Below are positions 16,893 to 22,421 of a DNA stretch of 48,822 nucleotides, one piece after another. This DNA is from Tunavirus T1, in sequence record MN153797.1. One strand, given 5' to 3'. Below the pieces are notes generated by a model that was given only the letters and a program-made list of their open reading frames with translations, did no database searches and was not told the DNA's origin. Every line of letters starts with the position of its first letter. Position 1 is the stretch's first letter. Made by a program: the position numbers and the translations under genes.

Positions 16893-17263
16893 TGAACTAC
16901 TCACAGATTGAAAGGATGGCTCGCAAAGGTGTGGCTTTCTTCACCGATCCGTCAAGACCTATGAACCTGATAAAGCAAGGTGAATACGGATATGATGAAA
17001 ACGGATTCGAGATCCCACCGATGGAACAGGTTATTCCAATATCCGGCGCGACGCGAAGACCGAACGCGCGTGAGATTGACGGGGAAACCATCCGCGCCTC
17101 AGATATTTTGGGGATCTTCAATAATGATCATGAAATAAACGAAGGTGACTATATAGAGATTGATGGCATTCGTCATGTTGTCGTTGATGCTCGCCCGGTT
17201 CAGGCGTCACTGGAACCAGTTGCCTATCGTCCAGTATTGCGGAGGGTATCAGTCGGTGGCTAA
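16883..17263 (+). CDS. head-tail joining protein (positional)
   Basis: ORF track; overlaps upstream stop. Confidence 0.4.
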   Translation: MPLMNYSQIERMARKGVAFFTDPSRPMNLIKQGEYGYDENGFEIPPMEQVIPISGATRRPNAREIDGETIRASDILGIFNNDHEINEGDYIEIDGIRHVVVDARPVQASLEPVAYRPVLRRVSVGG

Positions 17264-17699
17264 TTATCAGATTCGTAGATTTCAAGGCGAGATTGATGCG
17301 TGGATTAATGCCGCTGAAAGCACGTTAGAACATGCTATTGAGATATTCGTAAGGGATGTTCACGACGCTCTTGTTAGCCGCTCCCCTGTTGATACAGGTC
17401 GATTCAAGGGTAACTGGCAGATAACTTTTAACGAAATCCCTAACCACGCATTAAACCGATACGATAAAACTGGCGGTGTCGTCAGGGGTGAGGAACAGGA
17501 AAAAACTTATGGCATGTTCAGCCGTGGCGGCGCGATAACATCCGTTCACTTTTCAAACATGTTGATTTATGCAAACGCTCTTGAGTACGGTCATTCACAG
17601 CAAGCACCGAGCGGCGTTGTCGGTCTTGTGGCGTTAAGGCTTAGATCATATATGGCTGACGCAATCAAGCAGGCAAGGAGACAGCAAAATGCACTATGA
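17256..17699 (+). CDS. neck / tail completion protein, probable GTG start
   Basis: GGAGGG at 17241-17246 then GTG 17256 in frame with ORF 17160..17699; overlaps upstream stop at 17261-17263. Confidence 0.4.
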   Translation: MANYQIRRFQGEIDAWINAAESTLEHAIEIFVRDVHDALVSRSPVDTGRFKGNWQITFNEIPNHALNRYDKTGGVVRGEEQEKTYGMFSRGGAITSVHFSNMLIYANALEYGHSQQAPSGVVGLVALRLRSYMADAIKQARRQQNAL

Positions 17700-18087
17700 G
17701 TTATCAGCGGCGGCGCGAGCCGCTTTTCTATCAAATTACAGAGACTTTCCTCACTACATGGAAAACAGAAATTTCACACCGCCGAAGGATGGCGGGATGT
17801 GGCTGAGGTTCAACTACATTGAAGGGGATACGCTTTATCTATCCATTGACAGAAAGTGTAAATCTTACATCGCAATCGTTCAGATCGGCGTAGTGTTCCC
17901 TCCAGGCTCCGGCGTTGACGAAGCAAGATTGAAAGCAAAAGAGATTGCTGATTTTTTCAAAGATGGTAAAATGCTTAACGTTGGTTATATTTTCGAGGGT
18001 GCAATCGTGCATCAAATTGTTAAACATGAAAGCGGGTGGATGATTCCGGTTCGCTTTACAGTACGAGTAGACACAAAGGAGACTTAA
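17689..18087 (+). CDS. tail terminator-like protein (positional)
   Basis: ORF track; immediately upstream of major tail gene. Confidence 0.4.
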   Translation: MHYELSAAARAAFLSNYRDFPHYMENRNFTPPKDGGMWLRFNYIEGDTLYLSIDRKCKSYIAIVQIGVVFPPGSGVDEARLKAKEIADFFKDGKMLNVGYIFEGAIVHQIVKHESGWMIPVRFTVRVDTKET

Positions 18088-18089
18088 TT

Positions 18090-18758
18090 ATGCACTTACC
18101 AAATGGCGCACAAATTTTCGTGGAAACCTCTCGCGGGGTAGAGGTTGAGGCAACCGCTATCACTAACGCAGAAAATCCTGTTGCTACAGTTGCATCTAAG
18201 GGTGACTTGGCAAAAGGTGATTACGTTATTGTAACTCAGTCAACTTGGGCAAAGATGGTTAGTCGAGTGCTAATTGTTACTGACGCTCAGGAAACAAGTA
18301 TCACTCTTGCTGGAATTGACACCTCCGATACTCTTGTTTTCCCGGCTGGCGGCACGATGAGCTTTGCAAAAATTACTGGCTGGACTGAGATCCCTTGCGT
18401 ACAGGAGATTGGTCAGGACGGCGGCGAGCAGCAGTATTACACTTATCAGTGTTTGTCCGACGATAAAGAGCAGCAGATCCCAACGTTTAAATCTGCGGTC
18501 TCGCTAACTTACACCTTCGCGCACGAATTTGATAACCCGATCTACCCGATTCTGCGCAAGCTGGATTCGTCTGGTCAGGTAACAGCGGTTCGAATGTACG
18601 TTCCGAAAGCGAGCGAAATGCGCATGTGGGCTGGCATCTTGTCGTTTAACGATATCCCATCCACGCAGGTTAACGAAATGGAAACGGTGGAACTCGCCGT
18701 ATCCCTGAAAGGTGACTTTACTTTCATCTCATCCACTCTGGCATCGCCTGGTGCTTAA
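18090..18758 (+). CDS. major tail protein
   Basis: ATG 18090 with RBS aaggag; directly upstream of G/GT chaperone and tape measure genes. Confidence 0.6.
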   Translation: MHLPNGAQIFVETSRGVEVEATAITNAENPVATVASKGDLAKGDYVIVTQSTWAKMVSRVLIVTDAQETSITLAGIDTSDTLVFPAGGTMSFAKITGWTEIPCVQEIGQDGGEQQYYTYQCLSDDKEQQIPTFKSAVSLTYTFAHEFDNPIYPILRKLDSSGQVTAVRMYVPKASEMRMWAGILSFNDIPSTQVNEMETVELAVSLKGDFTFISSTLASPGA

Positions 18759-18770
18759 ATACCATCCACA

Positions 18771-18790
18771 GGGGGCTTGCACCCCCTTAT
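18771..18790 (+). terminator. Possible terminator
   Basis: Hairpin ggggg-cttgca-ccccc then T-rich tract. Confidence 0.4.
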
Positions 18791-18834
18791 TCATTTCTGT
18801 AAAATCATCTTATCAACTTTATTCGATTAACTTT

Positions 18835-18849
18835 TAACAAAAAGTGCTA
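18835..18849. promoter_or_regulatory. TAGCA-N5-TGCTA box (taacaaaaagtgcta) about 22 bp upstream of the chaperone gene start
   Basis: Read directly; too close to ATG for the standard promoter geometry. Confidence 0.4.
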
Positions 18850-18871
18850 TCAACCAATCAGGAGAAACATC

Positions 18872-19189
18872 ATGGCTAAATTCAATTTCGTGTTGGGCCA
18901 GCTTCCAGACTTCAAACTTCCGGTGACGTTCACCATGCCAAACGGCGAGGATGCGACTATTATTTTTACAGCACGCCACCTTTCCAGTAAAGAAGTGCAA
19001 GATATGTATGCGAAGCAGGGCGAAATGAATGATAGCGATTTCATCACTAAGATAGCATCAGGATGGAATCTGGAAGAAGAATTTAACGAAGAGAATACGC
19101 GTAAGCTGGTACAGTATTATCCTTCCGCAGCGTACAATCTGACGGCAACTTACATCAAGGCGCTCGCCGGACACCGCGCAAAAAACTAA
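18872..19189 (+). CDS. tail assembly chaperone (G-like)
   Basis: Position between major tail and tape measure genes; ends at slippery site. Confidence 0.6.
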   Translation: MAKFNFVLGQLPDFKLPVTFTMPNGEDATIIFTARHLSSKEVQDMYAKQGEMNDSDFITKIASGWNLEEEFNEENTRKLVQYYPSAAYNLTATYIKALAGHRAKN

Positions 19190-19506
19190 AAAGGGCGGTT
19201 TATCTGTTATATCAGAAACCGCCAACAAAAGAGCAATTAAGATCGGTTGGCCTCAGTCTTTCTGACTATGAAGACGAGGAACCGGAAACGATAATCGGCG
19301 ATGCTGAAATGGTGAAGGCGTGGAATGTTTTTACGTCAATGCTCACTCAGTGGAGAAGTTCAGGCGCTGGAGCTTATGGTCTTGACTATAATGTTTTGCC
19401 TATGTTGTTCAAAATCTATAAAATAGAAGATGAAGAACTGGCATTGCAGGACGTTAGGATCATGGAAGCGAAAGCGCTTGAAATGATTGCTAAGCAAAAC
19501 AACTAA
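18872..19506 (+). CDS. tail assembly chaperone frameshift product (GT-like), -1 shift at A_AAA_AAC 19180-19186
   Basis: Hand translation shows the -1 frame open from 19171 to 19506 with no stop; canonical X_XXY_YYZ heptamer 1 bp before the G stop codon. Confidence 0.55.
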
Positions 19507-19528
19507 GCCGCCGTTTGGCGGTTTTTTC
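19507..19528 (+). terminator. Rho-independent terminator
   Basis: Hairpin ccgcc-gttt-ggcgg then T6. Confidence 0.55.
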
Positions 19529-19547
19529 GTATATAGGGGGGGGTTAT

Positions 19548-22421
19548 ATGGTTGATAAGGTAGCAGGTCTATCTCTTGACGTTGACGTGTCAACAGTTCA
19601 GCGCGCTGTCAAGTCACTGAAAGAGTTTTCAAAGGCCAACGATCAGGCCGCTGATTCTATGGGTTCTTTAATCAATGAGTCAGAGGTTGCAAAACAGAAG
19701 GCCAAAGAACACGCCGAACAACTCAGGCGCCAGAGAAAAGAGTATGAGGCCGTGGAGAAGGCAATCGATCCTACAGTATCAAAAATGGAAAGGTTGAAGA
19801 TTGCATCTCAGCAGCTTGATAAACTCTGGCAGCAGGGAGTCGTTCCAGATGAGACTTTTTTCCGTTTGGGTGAAATGCTGGATCTGCAAAACGCAAAACT
19901 TGCTCGCAGCCGGGCCATGCTGACAGAAGAAGGGCAGGCAGCATTGCAAGAGGCGAAAGCAAAAGAGCAGGCGGCAGTGCGTAGCAAGGCGTTCATGGAT
20001 GCCCTGAATGGTCAAGTTAACGCGATCGGTAAGACTCATGCTGAATTGATGGAACTGAAAGCGGCTGAGCTTGGTTTATCGAAAGAAGCAGAACCACTAA
20101 TCGCAAAACTTAAAGATCAAGGCCGGGCTATGAATGCAGCAGGTATTAGCGCCGGGGAATACAGACAGGCAATGCGAATGCTTCCTGCGCAGATCACAGA
20201 TGTCGTAACATCTCTTGCATCCGGTATGCCAGTATGGATGGTTGCTATCCAACAGGGCGGTCAGATTAAGGATTCGTTCGGCGGGATCGGTAACACGTTT
20301 AAAGTGTTGCTGAGTTATATTAATCCGGTCACGGCAGGTGTTGGCGTTCTTGTTGGTTCGTTAGGTATTCTAGCGAAAGCTGGTTATGACTCTTACAAAT
20401 CAATAACTGATATTCAGAATGCGCTTATTGAGACTGGAGGTTATGCAGGTGTTACGGCTGAAGAGCTTGATTCAGTGTCTAAAAAGATCGCGCAGACAAG
20501 CAACTCAACCATTGGGAGTATTCGCGAGATTGTAACGGAGTTGGCGAGTTCTGGTAAGTACACCCGCGAGCAGATCCAGAACATCACTAAGGCTACCGCA
20601 GAGTGGTCAGCGTCAACAGGAAAATCAGCAAGTCAAATTATTTCTGAGTTCGAAAAAATAGCAAGCGATCCGGTAAAAGGACTGAAGAAGTTAAACGAGC
20701 AATATAATTTCCTTGAAAAAGGGCAGCTTACCTATATCGATACATTAAGCCGGACGAAAGGAGAAACTGAGGCTGTATCAGAGGCTACAAAACTATTCGC
20801 AGACGTAATGGAAAAGCGAATGAAGTCGATCGCGGATAACGCTACTCCTCTGGAAAAGATGTGGAGCGATATTAAACAATGGGCTTCGGACGCGTGGGGA
20901 TGGGTTGGTGATCATACACTCGGGGCACTAAACCTGATTATCGACGTTGTTCAGGGTACAGTGATTCAGGTTAAAATGATTCTTGCGAAGGGTGATGAAT
21001 ACATCTCAAACTTTATCGCCTCAGCCATAAAGGCAACTCAGTCACTGCCTGGAATGAGTGACTTCGGCGCTGATGTACTGAAGGAGCAGGAGAATATTGT
21101 AAAAAGTTCTCGCGACAACTACGATCAGTTAGCTTCAGATCTTGACGCTATTAACGCTCGTGTAGAAAAAAGCGAGATGGGATACATTGAAGCAATGAGG
21201 CAGCGCCGCACCCTTGAAAAGCAGTACAGTGAGGAAACTAAGGAGGCAATAAGGAAAGAAGCAGAAGAGATCGAGAAGCGAAACCGAGAACGAAATAAGC
21301 AGTCGAAAATTGTACGATCACCGACAGAGCAATTCGACAAGGAGTTAATTTCACTCAGGGCTCAACTTAAGGTATTGCAGGAGCATAAGGAGATCGGTCA
21401 AAAACTATCAGCACAGAGAAAGGCGCTGTTTACAACTGAGGCTACGATCGCTGTTCTTCGCGAAGCTAGTTCTAAGCGCCAGTTGTCTGCGGAAGAAAAA
21501 GCGTTGCTGGCAAGTCAGGAGAGAGTTATTGAGCTTGCGAAACAGAAGGCCGAGATTGGCGATCAGATTGTTAAGCAACAGCAGTTGAATGATCTTACCG
21601 ATAAATCTCTGAAGTTTGTCAATGAGATGACGGCGGCGACGGAACAGTTTAACGCGTCACGCGGTCTTAGTACTCGCGACATGGAACGACAAGCTGAACT
21701 AGCTAAAATCACCACTGATTACATCAACTCCGGCGGCAGCGAAGGAGACGAGAAACTTCAGAACATGATTAAGGCGCAAAATGATTACTACGCTGCGGAA
21801 GATGCCAAGCGAGCTGACTGGTTGGCAGGTGCTGAAAGTGCTTTTGCTGATTACGGTGATGCAGCAATGGATATGTACGGCAATGTTAACGAGATCGCGT
21901 CAAGTGCCCTTAACGGAATGTCAGATATGATGGTTCAATTTCTGACCACAGGAAAAGCGAACTTTGAGGACTTTGCGAAAAATATCATCGGCATGATTAT
22001 AAAGATGATTGCTCAGATGGTAATCTTCAATACGATCTCAGGCATGATGGGCGGTAAGACGTGGAGCTTTGCTGGAGGGGCGTCGTCTGGTGCTTCTGCG
22101 GCATCACAGGCAACCACTACACCTGCTGCTTCTGTTTTTAGATCTGTATCTTCCGGCGGGGCCGCTGTATCACTTGCTGCCGCAGCGGGTAGCGTGGCAA
22201 CCTCTGGATTCAACGCATCAAACTCGGCGCCAAAGGTGGTAAACCATTCAGGAGGTGGAACGGTCGTTGACGTTAGCGGAATGGAGGTGAAAGTTGACAA
22301 CGGTTCAGATCCGAGGGGGATTTCTCAGGGCGTGGAAATGATGTTCAAAAAAATGATTCGTGAGTCTTGTTCGCAGGGCGGCGAGGTTTATAATTACATT
22401 CAGGAAAAAACAGGAGGCTAA
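19548..22421 (+). CDS. tail tape measure protein
   Basis: About 958 aa, coiled-coil rich, Gly/Ala/Ser-rich C-terminal region; G8 tract at 19536-19543 directly upstream of ATG. Confidence 0.8.

Follow-up and report, generated by a model that had tools for sequence, protein, structure and literature searches.

In phage lambda, the tail assembly chaperones gpG and gpGT are produced through a programmed -1 shift at the slippery sequence G_GGA_AAG (Levin et al. 1993; Xu, Hendrix & Duda 2004, 2013, 2014; reviewed in PMC5009743). The fusion is a fixed minority product (about 1 in 30), and tail assembly requires both G and GT, G being the partner of the tape measure protein and T that of the tail tube protein. 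Virions contain neither product (PMC5009743). The locus described here, from a genome of Tunavirus T1, resembles this system in several respects. It is flanked by the tail tube and tape measure genes, and consists of a short G gene overlapped at its 3' end by a T ORF in the -1 frame, devoid of a start of its own. A heptameric slippery site is found near the G stop codon, a minor fusion product is expected, and the tape measure protein carries a C-terminal domain of the lambda type (PF09718). The two systems differ in the heptamer itself, A_AAA_AAC in T1 instead of G_GGA_AAG, in its position, as the T1 heptamer abuts the stop codon, and in the sequence families of G and T, which are others in T1 (PF08748 and PF08809). 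Moreover, the product ratio and the requirement for the fusion have been measured in lambda, whereas none of this kind were found for T1 in the literature searched.

The heptamer found in T1 is also that of the insertion sequence IS1, in which a -1 shift on A_AAA_AAC joins insA and insB' in E. coli (Escoubas et al. 1991, cited in PMC4066793). In this host, A_AAA_AAC is a low-efficiency -1 motif (>0.1% without stimulators), with a proven role in the programmed shift of IS1 (PMC4066793). Such a motif is well matched to the G/GT system, for which the ratio required in lambda is about 30 G to one GT (PMC5009743). T1 and IS1, thus, have in common an identical heptamer and the host translation machinery, with a low-efficiency motif placed where little fusion protein is wanted, although a virion assembly chaperone and a transposase belong to unrelated gene systems. 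IS1 has no established stimulator (PMC4066793), whereas the T1 heptamer is accompanied by an adjacent stop codon and a candidate hairpin.

Another point of comparison is the E. coli dnaX gene (A_AAA_AAG), with which T1 shares an A-rich heptamer, a P-site tRNA-Lys, and a hairpin located a few nucleotides downstream. In dnaX, about 50% of ribosomes shift, the shift yields the shorter product, the A-site codon is AAG, and a strong Shine-Dalgarno (SD)-like stimulator is present upstream. T1 departs from this scheme, with AAC in the A site, no conserved SD-like element, and a shift that would lead to the longer product.

The T1 site is read here, with a probability of about 90%, as the programmed -1 ribosomal frameshift of the tail assembly (tape measure) chaperone gene pair. 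This reading draws on the observed anatomy of the sequence, the neighbouring genes, the protein families to which G and T belong, the deep conservation of the site, and the coding selection in the -1 frame. At the sequence level, the locus displays all the hallmarks of the G/GT class, namely its place among the tail genes, two ORFs that overlap in the appropriate frames, a slippery site, and coding selection past this site. A G/GT frameshift had been proposed at this place in an earlier, sequence-only reading, and the proposal is supported in silico by the gene position, the assignment to Phage_TAC_4, the start-less coding ORF in the -1 frame, the conserved heptamer, and a joined CDS in GenBank.

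Gene order, protein families, and anatomy of the proposed shift site

The window is the whole stretch of DNA that was analysed (48,822 nucleotides, record MN153797.1), and all the features described below lie on its + strand. The 1-kb stretch around the heptamer is 99.7% identical to the T1 records AY216660.1, NC_005833.1, and MK213796.1, with equal coordinates. The gene order is the one expected of a G/GT system: the tail tube gene is followed by G, then by T in the -1 frame, and finally by the tape measure gene. The major tail (tube) protein gene (18090..18758) is assigned to Pfam family PF08813 Phage_tail_3 (E 1.2e-70) and to phrog_584, and its product is called major tail protein in AY216660.1. 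The G-like tail assembly chaperone ORF (18872..19189) encodes the zero-frame product of 105 aa. It is preceded by an AGGAG ribosome-binding site at 18860..18864 (sequence AGGAGAAACATCATG), common to G and GT, and annotated in AY216660.1 as the RBS of both CDS. The T part (19186..19506) is the extension in the -1 frame, made of 106 codons and a stop, which would be produced only as the C-terminal half of GT. The tape measure protein gene (19548..22421) matches PF06791 TMP_2 (E 2.2e-74), PF09718 Tape_meas_lam_C (E 8e-26), and phrog_24. The four ORFs located 3' of it presumably correspond, by gene order, to lambda M, L, K, and I.

The G/GT cistron is bracketed by two hairpins that resemble intrinsic terminators. 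The first one, at 18770..18796 in the interval between the tail tube gene and G, was returned by a terminator scan (18770-18788, plus a T-rich tail) and is listed as a rho-independent terminator in NC_005833.1. The second, a hairpin with a T-run at 19505..19530, in the interval that separates GT from the tape measure gene, was also detected by the terminator scan and is annotated as a terminator in both AY216660.1 and NC_005833.1. This bracketing suggests that transcription is attenuated step by step as it proceeds through the tail operon.

At the protein level, G is a full-length match to PF08748 Phage_TAC_4 (E 5e-37, 127.3 bits for a Pfam gathering cut-off of 21.1), and the T part matches PF08809 DUF1799 (E 2.8e-12, 47.2 bits for a gathering cut-off of 26). 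The Pfam scan of G and T (E<=0.1) returned PF08748 and PF08809 only, the lambda gpG and gpT families being unmatched, so the T1 pair would work like lambda G/GT rather than being a member of it at the sequence level. In the profile of phrog_17368 (213 positions), G corresponds to positions 1-107 and the T part to positions 109-212. The G/T boundary thus falls at 107/109, which indicates that this family was built from fused products, with the join at the heptamer. The NCBIfam search gave zero matches, the Rfam search of 18700-19600 (E<=1) returned nothing, and a PDB sequence search with the fusion provided only chance-level matches (proteasome alpha-2, E 0.08).

In the frame of ORF 18872-19189, the end of G reads gca aaa aac taa (19178-19189). 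It contains the slippery heptamer A_AAA_AAC (19180..19186), in the correct X_XXY_YYZ phase, directly abutted by the zero-frame TAA stop (19187..19189). This heptamer is the sole in-frame one of its type in G. Both its coordinates and its phase are as the sequence-only reading had given them. In the -1 frame, the last upstream stop is located at 19102-19104, so that the overlap permissive for a shift extends over 19105-19189 (85 nt). Starting at 19105, no further stop is encountered before the one at 19504-19506, in line with the claim that the frame stays open to 19506. The extension, previously estimated by hand at about 105 aa, amounts to 106 residues when computed for a slip at the heptamer, which yields a fusion of 211 aa. 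The occurrence of the heptamer in a single genome is weak evidence, because 12 in-frame X_XXY_YYZ heptamers are found per 9540 nt of structural ORFs, and about 0.11 are, thus, expected by chance per overlap of 85 nt.

Conservation of the slippery site among relatives

The relatives considered comprise 72 IMG/VR loci, with G identities ranging from 99% down to 43% and representing 67 distinct nucleotide versions, together with 6 further loci from a genome collection, including prophages of Gilliamella (37-39%) and Variovorax (28-29%). The heptamer A_AAA_AAC, directly followed by TAA or TGA, is present in 62 of the 67 distinct IMG/VR versions. Its X base is A in every heptamer-bearing version, due to the use of GCA for Ala or GTA for Val, although these codons only represent 29% and 21%, respectively, of the Ala and Val codons in the remainder of G. 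In the same 62 versions, Lys is always encoded by AAA (65% elsewhere) and Asn by AAC (68% elsewhere). The distant prophages also keep the heptamer, as CTA AAA AAC TGA within visibly GC-rich flanks in Variovorax, and as GAA AAA AAC in Gilliamella. Such a retention through synonymous choices, in 62 of 67 versions and in prophages at 28-39% protein identity, is far beyond chance.

The position of the stop codon is conserved as well. TAA or TGA adjoins the heptamer, or the A_AAG variant described below, in every one of the 67 distinct IMG/VR versions, as well as in 5 of the 6 genome loci; in the genome locus L078, the stop lies one codon further on. The abutting stop is maintained through the use of CTA or CTG as the first codon of the -1 frame, CTA making up 10.6% of the Leu codons in T1 structural genes.

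As the -1 frame is open from 19105, a change of frame at any other place in the 85-nt overlap (19105-19189) would also yield an in-frame fusion. Comparison with the relatives makes this extremely improbable. The overlap is just 31-43 nt in several of them (31 nt in L007), which pins the shift site, and G offers no other in-frame X_XXY_YYZ heptamer. In addition, among the few sequences compared upstream, the translation of the -1 frame differs between relatives before the heptamer, whereas it is conserved directly after it.

Six relatives carry A_AAG in phase, without the heptamer: IMG/VR loci L037 and L039-L042 (contigs of about 47 kb), and L076. Near locus position 1500, they read GCA AAG GTC TAA or GCA AAG CCC TAA, their T ORF is otherwise unaltered, and their -1 frame peptide is K-G/A-L-K-R-A-V. 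Among -1 tetramers in E. coli, A_AAG ranks first in efficiency (PMC4066793). These loci represent a sub-clade in which the heptamer has been swapped for the tetramer, inside one and the same chaperone family.

These variants also help to discriminate between slippage of the ribosome and slippage of the RNA polymerase. If the polymerase slipped on the A6 run, some mRNAs would contain an extra A and would encode a G-T fusion with a Lys junction (…AKK-LKR…). The site is indeed a run of six A, in which one added A brings T in frame, and the fusion protein of AY216660.1 (AAP50000.2) is written with K at the junction, although this is only an annotation convention. Polymerase slippage is, moreover, used by some bacterial mobile elements (PMC5009743). 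Nevertheless, codon phasing is irrelevant to a polymerase, whereas both this phasing and the C at position 7 are invariant in the 62 heptamer-bearing relatives out of 62, even though AAT and TTA are synonymous in both frames. Known cases of productive transcriptional slippage involve about nine A or more, compared with which six A is short. Lastly, the six A_AAG relatives, with only three A, are unable to support this process, yet their architecture of G and -1 frame T is intact. The presence, in place of the heptamer, of the best E. coli ribosomal -1 tetramer argues for ribosomal and against transcriptional slippage, and the latter is considered very unlikely at this site.

A few loci look like exceptions at first sight. 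In L033 and L074, the A-run near locus position 1500 counts five A (A5) instead of six, and T is consequently in the +1 frame with respect to G. In L018, the G ORF is split across three frames, with several frame breaks. They were rejected as biological exceptions, since the broken frames and the A5 run most likely result from homopolymer or assembly errors.

Two loci are filed under unrelated bacteria: the above-mentioned L076 (JABUUR010000187.1, 12.7 kb), in a 'Fibrobacter sp.' MAG, and L077 (NZ_VSMK01000220.1, 46.7 kb), under 'Nitratidesulfovibrio liaohensis'. Both contain T1/Rtp-like chaperone genes, the identity to T1 G being 44-56%, and the length of L077 is that of a complete Rtp-like phage genome. 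This points to mis-binning, or to the presence of contaminating phage DNA in these assemblies.

The T part as a coding sequence, and its annotation

Past the heptamer, the peptide LKRAVYL.YQ..PTD.EL..GL.R.DYE is conserved from codon 1 onwards in 43 of 43 distinct versions. For the first 29 T codons, the column entropy reaches 0.50, 0.32, and 1.23 at codon positions 1, 2, and 3, respectively, a dominance of the third position that is characteristic of a sequence translated in the -1 frame. The T ORF overlaps the 3' end of G in this frame, without any conserved start of its own. The first possible start wanders between clades, being found at codon 4, 7, 17, 19, 22, 31, 35, 41, 50, or 51; the first ATG is usually codon 41, and is located at 19309 in T1. 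On the strength of these comparisons, the conserved start-less stretch would be reachable from G only via a -1 shift at the heptamer.

Without recoding, T would have to be translated from an internal start (ATG 19309, ATG 19339 as in RefSeq ST39, or a TTG, as annotated for some relatives), and the heptamer would be incidental. NC_005833.1 and many related records do annotate a separate small ORF (55-89 aa), an ATG is available at 19309, and the above-mentioned chance expectation of about 0.11 in-frame heptamers per overlap leaves room for a coincidence. However, the 40 codons that separate the heptamer from the first ATG are conserved as protein, with variation dominated by third positions, and the position of the first start codon differs among clades (codon 4 to 51). 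The protein families also extend upstream of this ATG: the DUF1799 match starts at residue 24 of the T part, while coverage reaches residue 9 with phrog_680 and residue 1 with phrog_17368. Together with the fact that the heptamer is held through synonymous-site choice down to 28% identity, this makes an internal start highly improbable.

The -1 frameshift at the heptamer is already reflected in one database entry. AY216660.1 includes a two-piece CDS, CPTT1_039 (18872..19506), the product of which, AAP50000.2, is named 'tape measure chaperone, frameshift product'. An exact-sequence look-up identified AAP50000.2 as the fusion with a Lys junction (…HRAKK-LKRAV…), from which it follows that the annotators placed the shift at the same A-run; the fusion with an Asn junction was not found in the searched protein collection. 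The record, thus, differs from the product of a canonical tandem slip after AAC decoding, for which Asn is predicted (…AKN-LKR…), but the junction residue of AAP50000.2 is a convention and not a measurement. Other records describe the locus differently. In NC_005833.1, G, a T fragment (19339-19506), and the tape measure protein are each named 'tail length tape measure protein', G and T being separate. In most related records, G and T appear as separate hypothetical proteins, with differing T starts (55-104 aa), and the joined product is missing. A conserved chaperone frameshift is mentioned in the genome papers of several T1-like phages, such as Stevie (PMC4319613), U136B (PMC8104045), and Rogue1 (PMC3496638). 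No experimental demonstration of the T1 shift was found in the literature searched, Xu et al. 2004 and the original description of the T1 genome lying outside its scope.

Between 17200 and 19530, the sequence differs from AY216660.1 by four substitutions, at 17500, 17736, 18972, and 19228. Two of them fall within the chaperone genes: T>C at 18972 results in V34A in G, and G>A at 19228 in an E>K change in the T part. Outside of these genes, C>A at 17500 creates an additional AAAAAAC run within ORF 17256-17699, and the substitution at 17736 is G>T. Further downstream, the G-run at 19536-19543 counts 8 G, compared with 7 in the T1 reference. It lies between the terminator that follows GT and the tape measure ATG (19548), within the stretch that holds the ribosome-binding site and spacer of this gene. 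The extra G may reflect either genuine variation or a sequencing difference in a homopolymer.

Candidate stimulators and proposed mechanism

A candidate stimulatory hairpin is found at 19194..19223, starting 7 nt 3' of the heptamer. It consists of 7 bp, a 2-nt bulge, 4 bp, and a 6-nt loop, with a minimum free energy (MFE) of -15.9 kcal/mol and a z-score of -4.6 versus shuffles. With a spacer of 6-7 nt, this hairpin is present in the clades near T1, and absent in the Rtp-like clades, as well as in L034/L037, L052, L060, and L063. When the pairs of the T1 hairpin were counted across relatives, 78% of the cells were paired, with a covariation of 0.102 versus 0.078 in shuffles, and RNAalifold found no consensus structure in 38 distinct sequences around the site. 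As the arms of the hairpin encode the conserved residues R-A-V and K-P-P, its conservation is confounded with that of the coding sequence. Given the lack of an RNAalifold consensus and the limited covariation, a conserved stimulatory RNA is not claimed, and the hairpin is considered as a candidate. An upstream SD-like stimulator was rejected: purine conservation there is limited to the GG of a conserved Gly codon, and this GG is missing in the Variovorax relatives.

The T1 gene pair would operate as follows. Most ribosomes would translate G (18872-19189) and terminate at TAA, releasing the 105-aa chaperone, while a minor fraction would move one base back on A_AAA_AAC. This could occur either through a tandem slip, in which tRNA-Lys and tRNA-Asn re-pair to AAA AAA, or through a slip of tRNA-Asn in the P site, while the stop codon occupies the A site. 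The shifted ribosomes would then read CTA AAA AGG and continue to 19506, producing the 211-aa G-T fusion. Slippage of this kind would presumably be of low efficiency, well below 10%, and may be stimulated by the adjacent stop and the hairpin. By analogy with lambda gpG and gpGT, the tape measure protein would be coated by the G part, common to both products, and the tail tube protein would be recruited by the T part, which is rare, allowing a tube of the correct length to polymerise. Both products would be absent from the virion, as in lambda.

A further, rather tentative proposal, judged possible but doubtful, is that the conserved unit consists of the heptamer and its abutting stop, and not of the heptamer by itself. 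The shift would then be a P-site slip competing with slow termination, and the GT:G ratio would be set by the kinetics of the release factor instead of an RNA structure located downstream. The tRNA slipping in the P site would be tRNA-Asn, or tRNA-Lys in the A_AAG variants, and the stop would be held in place by an otherwise disfavoured Leu codon of the -1 frame (CTA or CTG). If true, this would account for the fact that several clades can dispense with the hairpin, while the stop is almost never moved.

Overall, the T1 chaperone frameshift is an already known and ordinary G/GT arrangement, annotated in the curated T1 record. It constitutes one more well-supported example of the G/GT rule, and opens no new question. 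Regarding annotation, this curated record and the comparison presented here indicate that the true second product of the locus is the 211-aa fusion. For the family as a whole, the retention of a low-efficiency heptamer is of very long standing, as it extends to protein identities as low as 28%, and to phages and prophages of both Gamma- and Betaproteobacteria hosts.
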